Shown: positions 6,517-64,000, numbered from the stretch's first letter. The stretch is DNA of 64,000 bases from a virus (IMGVR_UViG_2571042445_000002), one strand, 5' to 3'. Numbers and translations: made by a program. The notes: generated from the sequence alone by a model not told the origin.

Positions 6517-6564
6517 GCAAAACTGTGTTAGATAATTGAGTTTTGTTTTCTAACACAGTTTTGC
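6517..6564. promoter_or_regulatory. perfect 15-bp inverted repeat (GCAAAACTGTGTTAG ... CTAACACAGTTTTGC) containing the dispersed TGTTAGA/TCTAACA operator-like motif
   Basis: Arms at 6517-6531 and 6550-6564, 18-bp spacer; ends 5 bp before the rdgC start. Confidence 0.5.
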
Positions 6565-6569
6565 TAAAC

Positions 6570-7475
6570 ATGAGATTAGTCGCCTTTAAAAACATATACG
6601 TCTATCGCCTTGCCCGCGAAATAAAACTGGACTCAACCACCGTTAGTGATGCCTTAAGCCAATTCACATTCACTCCATGCGCATCACAAGAAATGGCAAA
6701 AGTCGGATGGGTGCCGGTTCTGGCTGACAACCTGATCCATGAATACCACGGTTTTCTACTTCTCCAGCAACAGCGAGAAATTAAGCTCCTGCCCTCTCAT
6801 GTCATTAAGGAGGAAGTGCAGAAAAAAGTGGAAAAGCTCGAAAATGAGCAATCTCGTAAGCTGAAGAAGTCGGAAAAAAACACCCTGAAGGATGAAGTTC
6901 TCCACTCTTTGTTGCCTCGCGCATTCACTCGCAAATCATTGTCGCGAATCCTTATTGATCGCGACAACTATCTGGTCTTCGTAGAAGCTTCCAGCGCCAG
7001 AAAAGCTGAAGAAATGCTGGCGCTCTTACGTAAATCACTTGGCAGCCTGCCAGTGATTCCATTCACGCCGATAGAACCGCTCGAAATGACTATGACCGAA
7101 TGGTTCAAGTCAACATTTCCTCAAGGCTTTAAAGCAGGCGAAGAAGCCATATTGAAATCTCTGTTCGATGACGGCGGCGCAGTTCGTTGCAAGAAAGTAG
7201 ACCTACAGTCAGAGGAAATAATGACTCATATTGAAGCCGGAAAAGTTGCAACAACAGTTGCAATCAACTGGCAGGACCGCGCGACCTTCAGGTTAAACGA
7301 TGACATGAGCATCAAAGCACTGACGTTTTGCGATGATCTCTATGACCAGAACGATGACATCGACCGTGAAGATGTTGCCCAGCGATTTGATGCTGACTTC
7401 ATTCTGTTCACAAGCGAATTATCCGCGATGTTTAGCTCGCTGGTGGAGGCCATTGGCGGTGAAGCAGAGCATTAA
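6570..7475 (+). CDS. rdgC: recombination-associated protein RdgC
   Basis: N-terminus MRLVAFKNIYVYRL, internal LKKSEKNTLKDEVLHSLLPRAF and DIDREDVAQRFDADFIL, C-terminus GGEAEH closely parallel E. coli RdgC as recalled; no obvious SD. Confidence 0.8.
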   Translation: MRLVAFKNIYVYRLAREIKLDSTTVSDALSQFTFTPCASQEMAKVGWVPVLADNLIHEYHGFLLLQQQREIKLLPSHVIKEEVQKKVEKLENEQSRKLKKSEKNTLKDEVLHSLLPRAFTRKSLSRILIDRDNYLVFVEASSARKAEEMLALLRKSLGSLPVIPFTPIEPLEMTMTEWFKSTFPQGFKAGEEAILKSLFDDGGAVRCKKVDLQSEEIMTHIEAGKVATTVAINWQDRATFRLNDDMSIKALTFCDDLYDQNDDIDREDVAQRFDADFILFTSELSAMFSSLVEAIGGEAEH

Positions 7476-7491
7476 TAACCGACCGCTGGCG

Positions 7492-8139
7492 GTGAGTCTT
7501 TGTGATTATACAGGGAATATGGTTTCCCCCTGGCTGGAACACGGCATTGATGCAGTCATTGTCGATCCGCAACACCAGGAGTCCGGCAGCCAATTGATGG
7601 AGTCAGGTGCTGTACTCACACGTATCAGCGCAATTATTGACAGTGATGAGGTCTACAATTTCCTTCGGAAAAATTTGCACAGAGTTGTATTTTTAGCCGG
7701 TTTCCCTCCGTGTACTGACCTGGCTGTATCTGGCGCACGCTGGTTCGCAGATAAAGCGAAAAAAGATCCGGTTTTCCAGTTCAAAGCAATGCAGGTTGTC
7801 TGGCAGTGTTACGACATTGCAAAGATGATTGGTTGCCCGTACATGATTGAAAACCCGGTCAGCCAAATATCGACATTCTGGCGTAAACCTGATCACATAT
7901 TCCATCCTTATCACTTCACTGCATATTGCAAGGAAGACAATTACACCAAAAAAACATGCCTGTGGAGCGGACAAGGATTCATCATGCCAACTCCGCGAAT
8001 CGACGAGTCGTTAGGTGATCCAGACAACCGAATACACAAGGCACCGCCAGGACCTGAAAGAGCGAATTTTCGTAGCGCGACACCTTACGGTTTTGCAAGA
8101 GCTGTATTTGAAGCAAATAAGGAGGGAATCCGTGGCTGA
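7492..8139 (+). CDS. short C5-cytosine DNA methyltransferase-like protein (start uncertain: GTG 7492 or ATG 7519)
   Basis: Motif GFPPCTDLAVSGARW resembles C5-MTase PCQ motif IV; MIENPV resembles ENV motif VI; N-terminal SAM motif degenerate; only ~215 aa. Confidence 0.45.
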   Translation: MSLCDYTGNMVSPWLEHGIDAVIVDPQHQESGSQLMESGAVLTRISAIIDSDEVYNFLRKNLHRVVFLAGFPPCTDLAVSGARWFADKAKKDPVFQFKAMQVVWQCYDIAKMIGCPYMIENPVSQISTFWRKPDHIFHPYHFTAYCKEDNYTKKTCLWSGQGFIMPTPRIDESLGDPDNRIHKAPPGPERANFRSATPYGFARAVFEANKEGIRG

Positions 8140-9049
8140 TATTGGTGCTAAATTTATTTCTTATAGCGACAATCATCGTCCTGCGGCGGAAGCCACTATC
8201 AGCCATATGCGACGTATTCGCTCGGAGGACGAATTTGATCGCCCCGTCTTTAAGTGGGTCGGCGGCAAATTTTCTGCACTGCCCATTATCTTCGAACACC
8301 TGCCCCACGGAAAACGGTTGATAGAACCTTTCGTTGGAGGTGGCGCTGTTTTCACTAATGCCGGATTTAAAAGCAACCTGCTGAACGATATCAATAATGA
8401 CCTGATTAACTTCTATCAGACATTGCAGCGTGAAGGGCATTCTCTTATCACACTGGCATATCGTTTTTTTCAGGATTACAACTCTGCTGATGCATTTTTG
8501 AATGTTCGCAATGCATTCAACAATGGTGCTTATGATTCCCTTCACCATGCAGCGGCGTTCCTGTATCTCAATCGTCATTGTTTTAATGGCGTCACTCGCT
8601 ATAACCGTAAAGGAGAGTTCAACGTCGGATATGGAAAGCAGAAATCCCCCCACTTCCCTCTCGCGGAAATGGAGGCGTTCCTGGCTGACGATATTTCAAA
8701 GTATTCGGAATTTGTGTCCGGCGATTTTGCTGGTGTAATTGAGGCTGCAGGGAATGATGATGTGATTTTCTGCGATCCCCCCTATGAACCATTGCCCGAC
8801 ACTACCGGATTTACAAATTACTCAGGGCATAGCTTTAGGTTTGAAGATCAACAACGGCTGGTGTCACTGCTGGTGGATGCCCACAGACGCGGAGCGAAAA
8901 TTGTGATAACAAACAGTGGTGCGCCTAACATTCGCGAACTTTACGTTGGCAATGGCTTCAAGGTGTATCCTATGCCATCCCGTCGCTCTGTATCCTGTAA
9001 AGCATCAACCCGAATGATAGCTAACGACATTATAGCCACGCTCAATTAA
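8132..9049 (+). CDS. dam: DNA adenine methyltransferase (Dam family, GATC-type)
   Basis: FKWVGGK...EPFVGGGAVF (motif I) and DPPY (motif IV) in Dam order; GTG start at 8132 preceded by AAGGAGGG; alternative ATG at 8207; overlaps previous gene by 8 nt. Confidence 0.8.
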   Translation: MADIGAKFISYSDNHRPAAEATISHMRRIRSEDEFDRPVFKWVGGKFSALPIIFEHLPHGKRLIEPFVGGGAVFTNAGFKSNLLNDINNDLINFYQTLQREGHSLITLAYRFFQDYNSADAFLNVRNAFNNGAYDSLHHAAAFLYLNRHCFNGVTRYNRKGEFNVGYGKQKSPHFPLAEMEAFLADDISKYSEFVSGDFAGVIEAAGNDDVIFCDPPYEPLPDTTGFTNYSGHSFRFEDQQRLVSLLVDAHRRGAKIVITNSGAPNIRELYVGNGFKVYPMPSRRSVSCKASTRMIANDIIATLN

Positions 9050-9051
9050 GA

Positions 9052-9074
9052 AAAGCCCCATATGGGGCTTTATA
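9052..9074. terminator. hairpin AAAGCCCCA-TAT-GGGGCTTT downstream of dam
   Basis: 8-bp GC stem, short U-tract. Confidence 0.45.
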
Positions 9075-9094
9075 ACATCAAATAAACGCCATTA

Positions 9095-9180
9095 CGGTAC
9101 ACTAATAACACCATTCTGGTACTAAAAAGGCATCAAGGTAGTATCAAAATACCACATGGAACCAAAACGGTGTTATTCCG
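9095..9180. repeat. centromere-like repeats downstream of the ParA/ParG-like operon
   Basis: AACACCATTCTGGTACTAAAAAGG and inverted CCAAAACGGTGTT; near-identical copy AACACCGTTTTGGTACTAAAAGAA at 10300-10323 on the other side of the operon. Confidence 0.45.
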
Positions 9181-23261: not shown

Positions 23262-23505
23262 TTATCCACAGCCGTCTGAGGGCTGAGAGAATTATCGCAT
23301 ACAGTCAATGTTTATATCGCATATAGTCAACATTAAATCGCACATAGTCAACATTAAATCGCACATAGTCAACATTAAATCGCACATAGTCAATGTTGAT
23401 CGCCATTTAGGCCAGTGATGGCGCGGCTCGCAGCGATCCGGGATCTTCTTTGGATCTTACTGGTTCTCTTTGGGATCTATTTATTGGATCTACCCTGTGG
23501 ATAAA
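23262..23505. other. oriR-like plasmid origin: DnaA boxes, five 21-bp direct iterons, cluster of six GATC sites
   Basis: TTATCCACA 23262-23270; iterons TCGCAYAYAGTCAAYRTT at 23295, 23317, 23338, 23359, 23380; GATC at 23398, 23435, 23442, 23452, 23473, 23487; TGTGGATAA 23496-23504. Confidence 0.6.
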
Positions 23506-23575: not shown

Positions 23576-24400
23576 TTGAACATTCCCAAATTCCCATTAC
23601 CTTCACAGCCTGAAATAGAAATTCAGTTTCATGCACCTACTGTGAAAGATGCCCTGAAATATTCAGACATCAATCCGGCAGAAGATGAGGCAACCACAAC
23701 AGAATACCTCAACGCCATGCAAGACGGCGAAATTAACGACAGCTCAAACTGGACAGTTCAGGATCGCAGAACCGCGCTTTGGTGGATCTTTGTCAATTCC
23801 AGACCAGATGCCGTAATGACTTACTCATACGAGTGTGGTCACTGTGGAAACGTTCATCACGCAGATATTAACCTTTCAGACCTTGCCGAAACGGTAGAAA
23901 TCCTGACTGTCCCGCCGTTTATTAAAACTATGGTCCCTATAAACGGAGTACCAACCGAGTGGACGCTTAAACCACTAACAGGGAAAGGAGCTGAATTGCT
24001 TGAGCGTATGCGCGCCACTTTGCCTGATATGAAAACTCCAGAGTACAGTGCTGAGGTTGCTCGTCTCCGCATAGCTGAGTTGGCCTTGTGTACATCTCTG
24101 AACGACGATCCAGAAGACTTCACACAAGCTGCAAACAGACGATTCGATATCATTGAAAACATGGCTCTGGAAACCGAGTTTACCCCTCTGGTAGCTCGCA
24201 TTCAGCTCATGCAGAAAGACCTTCGCCACGGCTTAAAAATGGCTATTGAACGAGGCACAAGCCGCCTGATCCTACCGCCACAACGCTGCAAAAACGCTAA
24301 GGAGGGTGCAGACGTGACTACCACGCTGTACGCCCCATTTCTCAATAGAGAGTTTATCCCATCAATTAGATCTGAATGGATGGCTAACCATTATCAATAA
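23576..24400 (+). CDS. hypothetical protein with CxxC zinc-ribbon-like motif (start uncertain; TTG 23576 has GGAGGA SD)
   Basis: Track ORF 23450 begins inside the origin; first start with SD is TTG 23576; motif YECGHCGN. Confidence 0.35.
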   Translation: MNIPKFPLPSQPEIEIQFHAPTVKDALKYSDINPAEDEATTTEYLNAMQDGEINDSSNWTVQDRRTALWWIFVNSRPDAVMTYSYECGHCGNVHHADINLSDLAETVEILTVPPFIKTMVPINGVPTEWTLKPLTGKGAELLERMRATLPDMKTPEYSAEVARLRIAELALCTSLNDDPEDFTQAANRRFDIIENMALETEFTPLVARIQLMQKDLRHGLKMAIERGTSRLILPPQRCKNAKEGADVTTTLYAPFLNREFIPSIRSEWMANHYQ

Positions 24401-24451
24401 CCTGACGTTATACGGCTACCAGCCAGTTAGTGACGTTGAACAATTACCGCA

Positions 24452-27400
24452 GTGGCGGGCACTCCATATGGAAAAAGCACTGGAAGAGAAATACAAAGCC
24501 CACGCCAAAAAAACAGGGTGATCACCGCCGATGTAAGTGAGGTTATTTTGAACGATAAAAAAGACCGAATAGCGATAATCGACGCAATACAAACGGCAAA
24601 CGCGAAAGAGCTAGCTGCGCTTTCAGAAATAAAAAAAGCACTTGAGTCTTACGGACGCAATCCTGATACCAGCGACGCACCACAAGGACGCGTAAGTCGT
24701 CGCCTGGCCCGAACAGGGAAAGCAGGGGCGCAACGCAACAGTTTCACACAGGGGCCGTATAAAGACCGGCTCCCTACCAGGAAACAGAGATTACGTATAA
24801 ACAACACTAGCGAGATAGATAATCCGCAAAAAGCAGCAGCAGATCACCGCACCGCTCATTCGGAATCAAAAACAGCACCGCTGGCTGAAGGCAAAGCCAC
24901 GAAGTCATCGCCTGAGCGCATTCAGTTGCTCACTCCTGACATTCAGCCTGCAAGGCAAGAACAACCAGTTAGAGAAAGCCAGAGCACCTCTGGTGCACCG
25001 TTACGGGATAGCAACGGACGATTTGCCTCTCAGAAAAAAAACGAGGATCTCGCACGCCAGAATGAGCTACGCGCACAGGCAAAACTACAGGTTGGGTTCC
25101 TGCGAAAACTCGGTTCCATTATGGGGGTTGATGGTTCAGGGAAAGCCGACGATGGAGCTGTAACCGATGCTGCCGGGGTAGGGGCTGGTGGTCCACTATG
25201 GATGGCAGCACGGGGCGTATTTGATATCTGCCGCGAGATTACTGGTAAGGCTAAATCATTGAAAGAATGGATAGATAATGGCAACGACAAGGCGGCTGGC
25301 GCACCGGTGGTCGCAAAAGCCCCCGCCATTACTTACCCGGCACCTGACAATGAAAGGAAGACTCCAGATAACGCGCCCGGTTCAGCAAAGGCATTTACTG
25401 AAGCCGTTAAAGAAAAATCTGTGCGTGCGATCGAAGAACAAACGAAAGTTCTTCAACGCAACGACAGCCAGATAATTGATGAGCTGGAAACTGTATCCGA
25501 AGAGATCCGGAAGCTACGAAAGTCCCAGGAGAGTGGGCTAAAACTGAGCGACCTCCTCGGCGGTGGCAGATTACGTACCAAAATATCCCCTACACGCGGT
25601 CGTAGCAGTGCACGTGGTGGCAACACGGGCCGCACTGGAGACAGTAAAGAAAACAAGGGCAAGAAGGGAAAAAACACCAGCAAACCTACTGAGACGGGCA
25701 GGAGTCAGGAAGGCAAAGAGGGGAAAAAAAATCAGCCAGGCAAAAACAACAGTGCGGGCGAGGAAAAAAATCGGACAAAAAATGCTGGTGGGAACGAGGG
25801 TAGTACCTCACCAAAATCATCGGGTGATAAATCTTCAGTTAAAACCAGAGCAGGTAAGGTCACTGAAGAAAGCGTAGCCAAAACGGCGGCTGGTGGAGCG
25901 GCAGGGAAAGACGCTGGTAAAGCGGCAACTTCCGCTGGGGAAAGCCTTACCAGGAAAGAGGCGGGTAAGGTTGCCGTTGCCACTGGTGAAAACATCGCGA
26001 AAAAAGAAGCTGGAAAAGTGGCTCTCAAAGCTGCCGGAGGTGTTGCCGCAAGGGCCGGATTCAGGGCGATTCCAGTCATCGGCCAGGTGGCTATGGTTGG
26101 TTATGATGCCGTAGACGGCTACAGCGACACAGAAGCGCAGAGGGCGACTTATAACCTGAAGGAAGGGCAGGACGTTACAACACAGCAAAAGAGCGCCTAC
26201 GCCGCTGCTAACGTCCTGGATATGGGCGGTCTGGTGACGGGAGCGGCTAACCTCATTGGCGAGGGGATGTCCGCGCTAGGCTTTGAAGGTGTCGGACAAA
26301 AACTTCAGAGTCTTGATACCAGCAATATTGCTCGCGGCATAAATAGTTCTATCGACGCGTCGAAGAACGCATTCAGCAGCCTAAAAGAATCGTTCTCATC
26401 AAGCAGCGAAGGCACTGCGCAGGTTAAGAAAGCCGTTGAAGATGGCACCAAGCAAACGGTAGCCGCAATTAATGATCTGGCCCGACAGCTACAGGGCGGG
26501 CGCAGAGGTGAGGATGGCGTGGGTGAACACGGCTACAAATCGCCAGACGAATTTAAAGCGCCTGAAAAAAATACAATAACGACTGATCTGAATATAGGCG
26601 GAAGCAACGCCAAGAACAGGAATTACCGGAATAACAACCTGGGGAACCTAGTTTTTGCAAATCAGGAGGGGGCGGTACTGGAAGCGCCGAACGCGAAAGG
26701 CGAACAGCGTTTTGCGCGGTTTAATACGCCCGAAGAAGGGATTCGGGCATTGGCAAACCAGGTATCGAGTTATTACAACGGTACAAGTGCTGCCGCTGGG
26801 TATCAGAAGCTGCAAACAGTATCCAGCATCATTTCAAAATGGGCACCACCAACAGAGAACAACACCAATCAGTACATTGAAAACGTCAGCAAATATCTAG
26901 GGGTATCCCCCAACGATAAAATAGACGTTAGCAACCCTGAAGTTATGACGCACCTTGTTCGCGCTATTGCGACGAAGGAGGGGGGTAACCCGGCGGTTAA
27001 CAACAATTTCATCAAAACAGCTCTTGGTTCATTCAACGCTAAAACTGGGCGTTGGGAAGGGCAATTCAATGATGAAACGCTGGAACACATTAATAAAATC
27101 CAGAAGGAAAAGGGCGGTCCTCTAATCGCTCGCAACTCCCAATATAGTGTCGGTAGCAAAGTCAAATACGCCAACGGCTCATCTTCTGCTATTCCTGCGT
27201 CAAGCGTAGCCCAGGCTGTAATGCCTAGCCCTACTGACGTGGTTCAACACGCACAGGCAGCTAAAAAACCGAAGGCAGCTCAACAGGAAAATGCCCAAGC
27301 GATCAGCCACGCGAAAGCTAGTGGCAATTCTTCCGCCGCAGCCGGATTGACGGAGCGGTTAATGAGTGCAGACGGTGTTGGGGGCGTCATCGCCGGGATA

Positions 27401-62651: not shown

Positions 62652-63044
62652 ATGGAGCAAATCAGTAGCGCCGAAATAGCGGATATCATGATCAGGGCTA
62701 ACTGCTATCTGACGGTCACCGAAATCACCAGCCGTGCAAAAGCACAATATCCTCACCTTCATGTGTCGCGCGTAAACGTAAATAACATCATACGTTTTTT
62801 TGTTCGTTCCAGTCGTGCCATTTGCGAAATAGACGACCGCGTATACCCCCGGAAATATTGGTTACATGGCCTGAATGGATACCAGTTCAAGGTGCGCGGG
62901 CGCACTCCTGAATTCGGTCGGCTGTTGGTGAAAAACACCAACCGAAAGATAGAAGCTCAATTACGAAAGGAGCAGCGTCAGTTGGTGGCGATGACTAACC
63001 AGCTATGGAACGCCGCTGTGAAAAAACGTGAGGCTTCCCTATGA
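62652..63044 (+). CDS. hypothetical protein, possible late-promoter activator (Lpa-like position upstream of pacA)
   Basis: 130 aa; directly upstream of and overlapping the PacA-like gene, as lpa is in P1 (recalled); functional call by synteny only. Confidence 0.35.
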   Translation: MEQISSAEIADIMIRANCYLTVTEITSRAKAQYPHLHVSRVNVNNIIRFFVRSSRAICEIDDRVYPRKYWLHGLNGYQFKVRGRTPEFGRLLVKNTNRKIEAQLRKEQRQLVAMTNQLWNAAVKKREASL

Positions 63045-64000
63045 CGTTAATTAACTGGGAAGCGCATCGAGCTAAGTTCCTGGAGTTAAGAGAAGAAACC
63101 GGGATCACCATAAAAGAATATTGCGAGCAGCATGACCTCAGCTTTAACACCGCCAGAAAGCATCTCAATATGAAAAAAAATGAGGTTAAGGCGAAAGCTA
63201 AGGCTACCGGGAAAAGTACAAAACAGCGCGCAAAAAGCAGTGCCACCGGCTCAAAAAAAGAGCAAAAAAAGGCTAATAAAAGCACAGAATTTACAAAAAC
63301 TGACAAATCGTTGGCTGGTGGACGGTTCCGCGCCATGCCGCAAAAACAAAATGCGGATCACAAAGAAAAGCCAAGTAATAACAACAAGATACACAAGGAT
63401 GTGAAGGGATCATTTTGTGATGAAATGGGAGAAATGATCCCTAAAAGCAGCGATAAAGCCCAACGAAACAAGGGATCATTGCAAATGATCCCTGATTCAT
63501 CAGCTCAAAGCACCACTTTGCCTGCCACCAACGTCGCCCGTGAGATGATGAAGAACGGCGCGACTGAACATTTACGACTTGCGATACAGATGGCGCAGGA
63601 ACGAGCAATTCAGTATCAGGCTATCGTTGACCAGGAAGCGGAGCGACTACAGGAAGAGATTGACGCTCTCGGTGATACACAGCCAGAGGGGATGCACCCA
63701 GGGCAGCGTCTTCTCGGACTGATCAGCGATGCGGCCTACTACATGAATGACTTTATCACCAGGCTGGCAGCCATCTATCAGAACGAGCAGAAGCTACGCC
63801 AGGGGGATGAAAAACTTGCGCAGGGCGCGCGTCAGCAGGCATTCAGGGAGGCTGAGGCCAGAGAAAAACTGGCGATTGCCCGCCTACAAGCCGAGCAGCG
63901 TGGCAAGGAGATTGAGTATCGCATTGGCGCTGACGCACGCGCCGCCAGGGTTATCGCCGCCGCTATACGTATGCGTGAGCGCGAGGAGCTGGATGATATA
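63041..64000 (+). CDS. pacA: PacA-like terminase small subunit / pac-recognition protein, 3' end outside window
   Basis: Open frame from ATG 63041 to window end (not in ORF track because unterminated); N-terminus MTLINWEAHRAKFLELREETGITIKEYCEQHDLSFNTARKHL parallels P1 PacA N-terminus as recalled. Confidence 0.5.
   Translation, partial: MTLINWEAHRAKFLELREETGITIKEYCEQHDLSFNTARKHLNMKKNEVKAKAKATGKSTKQRAKSSATGSKKEQKKANKSTEFTKTDKSLAGGRFRAMPQKQNADHKEKPSNNNKIHKDVKGSFCDEMGEMIPKSSDKAQRNKGSLQMIPDSSAQSTTLPATNVAREMMKNGATEHLRLAIQMAQERAIQYQAIVDQEAERLQEEIDALGDTQPEGMHPGQRLLGLISDAAYYMNDFITRLAAIYQNEQKLRQGDEKLAQGARQQAFREAEAREKLAIARLQAEQRGKEIEYRIGADARAARVIAAAIRMREREELDDI
63406..63491. other. pac-like site: four TGATCCC/GGGATCA elements (GATC-containing) in alternating orientation inside the pacA 5' region
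   Basis: GGGATCA 63406-63412, TGATCCC 63434-63440, GGGATCA 63472-63478, TGATCCC 63485-63491. Confidence 0.45.

Follow-up and report, generated by a model that had tools for sequence, protein, structure and literature searches.

The window, a stretch of 64,000 nucleotides, carries a run of three genes, rdgC, a short gene of the C5-cytosine-methyltransferase type and dam, which probably provides two coupled enzymes, a minimal C5 methyltransferase and a P1-type Dam methylase, combined by module replacement. The methylase pair would be a split analogue of the P1 protein Dmt, with Dam joined to a different, non-homologous C5 module. A sequence-only reading of the two methylase genes had proposed a fission product, a decayed domain or two coupled enzymes. 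Our analysis supports the last of these: neither gene is disrupted, a separate Shine-Dalgarno site precedes each of them, the overlap between them is conserved and the two proteins are under constraint.

The E. coli plasmid NZ_CP104667.1 (91.75 kb) contains this region with 100% identity. The region also matches phage D6, a P1-related phage-plasmid, with 74% nucleotide identity over 94% of the region's length. Its sequence thus marks the window as a D6-like phage-plasmid of E. coli. Its gene order is also that of D6: rdgC is followed by the short C5-type methylase gene and dam. All three genes, with the overlap, motifs and Shine-Dalgarno sites described below, are encoded on the plus strand. 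The first gene of the run is an rdgC/hrdC-like gene (6570-7475, stop codon at 7473-7475; PF04381, E-value 1.3e-100), the coordinates of which are taken from the PGAP annotation of near-identical plasmids. Among 5,426 complete E. coli genomes in RefSeq the methylase pair is present on about 100, and it is plasmid-borne in every case. Just 3′ of the dam stop codon lies a GC-rich palindromic hairpin, AAAGCCCCATATGGGGCTTT (9052-9071), a terminator-like site that is located between convergent genes and has a terminator score on the minus strand; it probably marks where the transcription unit ends. With up to three mismatches allowed, no site in the window matches the operator consensus of P1 C1, and control of the methylase operon by a P1-type C1 is thus unsupported.

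The short gene lies in a reading frame that runs without a stop codon from 7333 as far as the TGA at 8137-8139. Starting from the GTG at 7492, it encodes 215 amino acids, including the motifs FPPCTD and ENPV, which is the length of about 215 amino acids originally given for this ORF. The likelier start is the GTG at 7459, located 33 nucleotides further 5′, which extends the protein to 226 amino acids (7459-8139) and makes the gene overlap rdgC by 17 nucleotides. We regard this as the most likely start because the residues encoded by 7459-7492 are covered by alignments of homologues from other phages, because the beta-1 strand precedes the LCD motif in the family alignment and because the GTG and its Shine-Dalgarno site are conserved. 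This site, GGAGG (7445-7449), is located in the 3′ end of rdgC and is separated from the GTG by a spacer of 9 nucleotides. GTG and GGAGG are both kept in all eight D6-like sequences examined (8/8), and approximately 30 nucleotides around the GGAGG are identical in the window and D6, against an overall divergence of about 25%. The start of the corresponding D6 gene, orf64, is annotated at the position equivalent to 7459. PGAP places the start of the short gene at the ATG at 7519 (in LR890273, a plasmid that is 98.9% identical); this would cut off motif I and is therefore probably wrong.

The dam frame is open from 8015 to 9049, and the gene (8132-9049, GTG start) codes for a Dam-family N6-adenine DNA methyltransferase of 305 amino acids (PF02086, E-value 1.7e-53; TIGR00571, 231.6 bits with a cut-off of 114.85). 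It contains the motifs EPFVGGGAV (FxGxG type, 8324-8350) and DPPY (8774-8785). As stated in the sequence-only reading, dam begins in the 3′ end of the upstream ORF in another frame: its GTG at 8132 precedes the TGA at 8137-8139, and the 8-nt overlap read from the dam start codon through the short-gene stop is GTGGCTGA (8132-8139). The Shine-Dalgarno site of dam, AAGGAGG (8119-8125), likewise lies within the 3′ end of the short gene, 6 nucleotides 5′ of the GTG. Loci of the D6 type have an 8-nt overlap with identical geometry and the sequence ATGAGTAA; the overlap is thus kept in both D6 sub-lineages despite the differing sequences. Overlaps of 4 or 8 nucleotides are common in phage operons, and the 8-nt overlap alone is therefore unremarkable. 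The coordinates that PGAP gives for dam in LR890273 are the same as in the window. In RefSeq the identical plasmid's Dam carries a pseudogene label ("missing N-terminus"), but ORF, Shine-Dalgarno site and start codon are intact and the same as in LR890273, where the copy is annotated as complete, so that this flag looks like an annotation artefact.

The frames in the run thus overlap by 17 and 8 nucleotides, and both downstream starts have a Shine-Dalgarno site of their own that lies within the gene before. Taken together, overlaps and internal Shine-Dalgarno sites suggest that both methylases are probably made from one mRNA by translational coupling. Co-transcription and translational coupling probably include all three genes, as the arrangement of their reading frames indicates. 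Coupling of the methylases is also favoured by P0121, a natural fusion of a short C5 protein with Dam in a metagenomic relative, and by P1 and JK004, in which a PF00145 domain is fused to the same Dam.

To judge motif conservation in the short protein we used 47 close homologues and 14 diverse ones (29-100% identity). The PC and ENV-like motifs that had been noticed in the upstream ORF are confirmed: motif IV is FPPCTD (7702-7719) with the presumed catalytic Cys85 (226-aa numbering), and motif VI is ENPV (7849-7860), the equivalent of ENV, with Glu131. Both are invariant in the 47 close and the 14 diverse homologues and therefore do not represent chance matches. A motif X-like sequence, RSATPYGFA (8071-8097), is located directly before the C-terminal helix, which comprises residues 199-214 of the predicted model; its R, S, T and G are invariant in the diverse alignment. 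Altogether, the invariant residues of the diverse set are Asp61; Pro83, Cys85 and Thr86; Glu131, Asn132 and Pro133; Lys164 and Thr166; and Arg205, Ser206 and Thr208, which correspond to motif III, motif IV, motif VI, a motif VIII-like strand and motif X. Asp61 (in IID) is conserved in the clade of the window protein and invariant across the diverse set; Asp36 (motif II, VDPQH) is invariant in the clade only.

The equivalent of motif I is SLCDYTGNM (7495-7521), presumably a variant SAM-binding loop. At this position the wider family has SLFDGSG and the clade of the window has LCDxTG. Compared to FxGxG, Cys stands in place of the Phe, and Tyr or a different, variable residue in place of the first Gly; the Asp and the second Gly are kept. 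This SAM motif, described as degenerate in the sequence-only reading, is a clade-specific variant of LFDGSG. Conservation of its L, C, D, T, G and M within the clade reaches 90% or more, which does not look like decay. With 226 amino acids the short protein is considerably smaller than classical C5 enzymes, which have at least 327. Only about 35 residues separate its KKTCLW strand from the motif X-like RSATP, and the target-recognition domain that is located between motifs VIII and IX is absent from the protein, which has no room for it.

Searches with the short protein yielded no match (E-value up to 1) to PF00145 or any other Pfam methyltransferase, and no methyltransferase match in NCBIfam or the PDB (phmmer, and a profile search with the diverse alignment). 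These sequence profiles therefore cannot place the protein. In the PHROGs database residues 2-212 match phrog_757, "DNA methyltransferase", with an E-value of 4.1e-77. The predicted fold is nearest to C5 DNA methyltransferases, chiefly the catalytic domains of the DNMT3 type, at weak Foldseek E-values (about 3e-3) and a TM-score of about 0.5. The best structural matches are the catalytic domains of DNMT3A and DNMT3B, M.HhaI and CmoX. DNMT3A/3B and other C5 enzymes have the motif order I, IV, VI, X in common with the short protein, and the target-recognition region of DNMT3 is likewise small. The sequence identity to these DNMT3 and C5 matches is only 8-17%, with no similarity at the profile level, and even the catalytic domain of DNMT3 exceeds the short protein by about 60 residues. 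The model thus predicts a class I SAM-methyltransferase fold that is closest to C5 DNA methyltransferases. A lack of any methyltransferase fold in profile searches, which the sequence-only reading had named, together with an absence of m5C, as speaking against an enzyme of this kind, is found for Pfam, NCBIfam and PDB profiles; PHROGs and the fold comparison do find one.

The short protein belongs to a very large family, for which grouping at 90% identity gives 6,494 clusters or more and grouping at 50% gives 2,551. Members were found in 1,588 phage genomes, among them Drexlerviridae, phiKO2, RB49, phAPEC8 and Flavobacterium phages, and nearly all members are stand-alone proteins of about 200-280 amino acids; among the 90% clusters listed, most have about 200-260. 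The short protein shares with the PHROG 757 family the full-length profile match, the stand-alone size and the PPC, ENP and RSxT motifs; a KxT motif is invariant alongside these. In one member of the family, a Hint/LAGLIDADG intein interrupts the motif precisely between FPPC and the following T. Inteins usually occupy functionally critical sites. Adjacency to Dam was considered as a trait of the family and rejected: 74 of the 80 IMG/VR loci that carry the short-gene family have no Dam within 4 kb, and close relatives with 60-65% identity occur in prophages of Cedecea, Pseudomonas and Agrobacterium, within the early or nin region and with no Dam nearby. The pairing is therefore lineage-specific, and functional cooperation is not implied by it.

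One member of this family has been characterised. In phages that escape the retron Ec86, the 711-bp "dcm" gene of phage K42 (Drexlerviridae) is missing or carries mutations, and its expression is toxic only in the presence of Ec86 (bioRxiv 10.1101/2023.08.16.553469). By LC-MS, K42 Dcm is reported to raise 5mC on the Ec86 msDNA, and this rise requires residues C82, E128, K175 and K176 (bioRxiv 10.1101/2023.08.16.553469). The study is a preprint and employed a dcm+ host; the target CCWGG was an assumption based on E. coli Dcm and not a mapped site (bioRxiv 10.1101/2023.08.16.553469). The protein gp41 of phage tonijn, which also belongs to the Drexlerviridae and is encoded by 711 bp, has C82, E128, K175 and K176 at exactly the positions of K42 Dcm, and is 36% identical to the short protein over the full length (E-value 2e-42). 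Cys85 of the window protein aligns with C82 and Glu131 with E128 of K42 Dcm and tonijn gp41. The short protein is therefore a member of a family with reported m5C activity.

Dcm proteins of the K42/KarlJaspers type have the catalytic Cys, Glu and KK in common with the short protein, and are stand-alone proteins of about 230 amino acids. Their motif I is LFDGSG, whereas the clade of the window has LCDYTG, and they contain a 14-residue insertion before the KKTCLW strand that is not present in the window protein. The dcm genes of this type have no adjacent Dam gene, whereas the short gene overlaps dam. Activity has been demonstrated only for the K42 enzyme, from which the window clade differs in motifs I and II (VDPQH). 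On the basis of this comparison and the motif and fold analyses, the short enzyme is predicted most likely to make 5-methylcytosine in DNA from SAM.

P1 indeed carries a fused Dam/C5 enzyme, as stated in the sequence-only reading: Dmt has 754 amino acids, is encoded after hrdC, and matches PF00145 in the N-terminal half (E-value 1.6e-35) and PF02086 in the C-terminal half. Such a single fused polypeptide is not encoded here, since the window contains two ORFs in differing frames, the first of which ends at the stop codon at 8137-8139. Alignment to Dmt, which had been proposed as a check, relates only one of the two proteins to it. Residues 471-753 of Dmt, among them some 17 from the linker between its domains, align with the window Dam at 69.5% identity, a similarity that identifies this Dam as the orthologue of the Dam half of Dmt; between the short ORF and the C5 (PF00145) half there is none (BLASTP E-value 3.9, hhalign probability 0.5%). 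A remnant of the Dmt C5 domain is therefore rejected as an identity for the short ORF, as both methods show no relationship. P1 thus has an orthologous Dam in the same slot after hrdC, likewise combined with a module of the C5 type. The C5 module of P1 is a canonical PF00145 domain of about 470 amino acids in an in-frame fusion, whereas that of the window has about 226 amino acids, is encoded by its own overlapping gene, lacks the target-recognition domain and is unrelated in sequence to that of P1. Cronobacter phage JK004 also encodes a fusion of PF00145 and Dam after rdgC; its gene_30, located between rdgC and the fused dmt gene, is unrelated to the short protein.

In the D6 record (MF356679) the baseplate genes are followed by an RdgC-family gene, "similar to P1 hrdC", by orf64, "putative DNA-cytosine methylase", and by orf63, [quoted passage not shown]. 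The pair orf64/orf63 is orthologous to that of the window and has the same order; its short gene also encodes 226 amino acids, starts with GTG preceded by GGAGG and has the 8-nt overlap. The window represents a sub-lineage apart from D6: the overlap is GTGGCTGA in the window and ATGAGTAA in D6, and D6 has glnS 3′ of dam, which is not present there in the window. The Dam proteins of window and D6 share 76% amino acid identity (dN 0.17); since dS is saturated in this comparison, no dN/dS ratio was derived for dam.

Fission, in which a fused enzyme of the P1 Dmt type has been split and the short ORF is the leftover C5 domain, is unlikely. It would fit the syntenic slot shared with P1 (hrdC, C5 part, Dam part) and the N-terminal extension of the window Dam, residues 20-36 of which align with the inter-domain linker of Dmt and with the linker of P0121, a natural fusion of a short C5 protein with Dam. 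The Dam part of P0121 is 48% identical to the window Dam, N-terminal extension included, and the existence of this fused protein would fit fission as well. But P0121 is the only fusion of this kind that was found and is encoded on a single 2-kb metagenomic contig, and since a 1-nt insertion or deletion in the 8-nt overlap could create a fusion, P0121 does not fix the direction of the change. The short ORF, furthermore, has no PF00145 match and is dissimilar to the PF00145 half of Dmt, and its full length matches thousands of stand-alone homologues without Dam nearby. The proposed origin as a fission product is therefore unsupported for the C5 part, and only Dam is orthologous. The dissimilarity of the short ORF to the C5 half of Dmt, together with the orthology of Dam, favours module replacement over both fission and decay.

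It is also improbable, but conceivable, that the C5 enzyme and Dam of the P1/D6 lineage form one physical unit, in which the C5 enzyme, lacking a target-recognition domain, relies on Dam for DNA binding or targeting to set a combined m6A and m5C mark. This would explain why the 36-residue N-terminal "linker" of Dam is kept and why the P0121 fusion exists, as well as the occurrence of two non-homologous C5 modules on Dam, as a fusion in P1 and JK004 and as overlapping genes in D6. Such a mark could be, for instance, m5C at positions defined by the GATC sites of pac or ori. In a variant of the same idea, the altered motif I of the clade reflects a cofactor other than SAM.

A protein that has the C5 fold but another chemistry or substrate, for example carboxymethylation with carboxy-SAM (a compound that E. 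coli makes through CmoA) or the modification of RNA, single-stranded DNA or nucleotides, appears very unlikely.

In comparison to D6 the short gene is the best conserved of the rdgC/short gene/dam trio. The proteins are 82% identical, with a dN of 0.107, a dS of 1.53 and a dN/dS of 0.07. This ratio covers the whole gene (226 codons), and no more than about 8 codons fall within overlaps. The short protein is under strong purifying selection. That it is a decayed or inactive relic that does not bind SAM and persists as a non-catalytic protein or through the gene overlaps alone would agree with the departure of LCDYTG from FxGxG, with the absence of a target-recognition domain and of Pfam and NCBIfam matches, and with the RefSeq label "hypothetical protein", but has hardly any probability left, given this low dN/dS over a gene that lies almost wholly outside the overlaps, the catalytic Cys, the Glu and the motif III residue Asp61 that are invariant across 29-100% identity, a variant motif I that is itself at least 90% conserved, and relatives at 60-65% identity that are retained in unrelated prophages. 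The suggestion of a decayed domain is thus rejected: the protein has stayed 82% identical to its D6 orthologue at a dS (1.5) near saturation, and its family comprises at least 6,494 clusters.

With two coupled enzymes as the preferred explanation, the upstream protein would be a complete and self-sufficient minimal C5 methyltransferase: a Rossmann-type catalytic domain that uses the Cys of Pro-Cys as its nucleophile, has a Glu of the ENV type and ends in a motif X resembling that of DNMT3. Its predicted role is likely protection against restriction or another epigenetic function. The counts of sites in the window relative to expectation (GATC 0.76, CCWGG 0.90, GGCC 0.56) indicate no target motif. 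Dam presumably methylates GATC and, by analogy with P1, would keep the rapidly replicating element fully GATC-methylated. GATC clusters at an origin-like and a pac-like site are its likely functional targets. The first consists of six GATC in 90 nucleotides (23398-23487), beside three 21-bp iterons near a gene for a RepB-family initiator; the origin-like region including the iterons spans 23340-23487. The second consists of five GATC in 132 nucleotides (63356-63487), within the 5′ part of a putative pacA-like ORF, which has no Pfam match and is named only from its position and N-terminal sequence. In P1, packaging requires Dam methylation at pac (PMC12707154).

Since the same pair is already annotated in phage D6, the arrangement is largely ordinary: it is known from D6, and the family already has a characterised member in K42 Dcm. 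The practical value lies mostly in annotation. The short gene, present on about 100 of the 5,426 E. coli genomes, is a "hypothetical protein" in RefSeq, and its family has neither a Pfam nor an NCBIfam model although it occurs in about 1,600 phage genomes. Two probable annotation faults became apparent, the intact Dam that RefSeq calls a pseudogene and the PGAP start of the short gene that drops motif I. The pairing of Dam with two kinds of C5 module changes nothing in the current understanding of either enzyme class, and the family offers a natural case of a C5 methyltransferase that is minimal and lacks the target-recognition domain. That two unrelated C5 modules have been joined to the same Dam in P1-like and D6-like elements suggests selection for making both marks together. 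Because a homologue of the short protein reportedly triggers the retron Ec86, this retron may sense D6-like phage-plasmids, which may alternatively be restricted by systems of the McrBC type.

The Dam gene is labelled as a pseudogene with a "missing N-terminus" in the RefSeq annotation of NZ_CP104667.1, an E. coli plasmid identical to this region (23990-24808, corresponding to 8231-9049 in the window). The open reading frame, the Shine-Dalgarno site and the GTG start of the window gene (8132-9049) are all intact, and Dam is annotated as a complete protein of 305 amino acids in plasmid LR890273, which is 98.9% identical. The start assigned by PGAP to the short C5-type methylase gene (7459-8139), the ATG at 7519, leads to the loss of motif I.

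The gene run rdgC, short C5-type methylase and dam is preceded by a perfect 16 bp inverted repeat (6517-6564; GCAAAACUGUGUUAGA ... UCUAACACAGUUUUGC), which is located between the stop codon of the baseplate gene and the ATG of rdgC. The folding energy of the RNA is -25.2 kcal/mol (z -5.2). The hairpin is retained in phage D6, where the outer stem shows compensatory changes compared to the window and the core TGTGTTAGA/TCTAACACA is conserved. The repeat may be a regulatory hairpin or operator upstream of the rdgC-methylase operon. Downstream of dam the two lineages differ: in phage D6 a glutaminyl-tRNA synthetase gene follows immediately 3′ of dam (L001 5586-7247), whereas the window lineage lacks this gene (9050-9180) and small ParA-like partition genes come next.

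Three metagenomic members of the short C5-type family carry further domains. P0221 (548 amino acids) carries an intein with Hint and LAGLIDADG domains, inserted exactly at the FPPC/T junction of the catalytic motif IV. P0121 is a natural fusion, encoded at 218-1909 of a 2,057 bp contig (L015, Logan SRR32529081), which joins residues 2-253, the short C5-type domain, to a Dam (PF02086) at residues 303-546 in one polypeptide; it was seen on this single short contig only and could be an assembly or frameshift artefact. The Dam moiety of this fusion shares 48% identity with the Dam encoded in the window. P0171 (348 amino acids) has an HNH endonuclease domain (PF13391) at the C-terminus and may combine methylase and nuclease in one unit.

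Over the whole 64 kb window, GGCC is strongly depleted, with 134 sites observed where 240 would be expected (ratio 0.56); the depletion of GATC is moderate (ratio 0.76), and CCWGG is close to the expected count (ratio 0.90). GATC is clustered in two places. Near a RepB-family initiator gene (23340-23487), three iteron-like 21 bp direct repeats (tcgcacatagtcaacattaaa) are followed by six GATC sites within 90 nt, several of them inside GGATCT repeats. The arrangement resembles that of a plasmid origin, and its Dam methylation cluster is similar to the one in P1 oriR. Five further GATC sites lie within 132 nt (63356-63487), arranged as inverted GGGATCATT...AATGATCCC pairs, in the 5′ portion of an ORF resembling pacA. 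This ORF starts at 63041, continues past the window end and gave no match in a Pfam search. By analogy with P1, this second cluster is a candidate for a pac site under Dam regulation.
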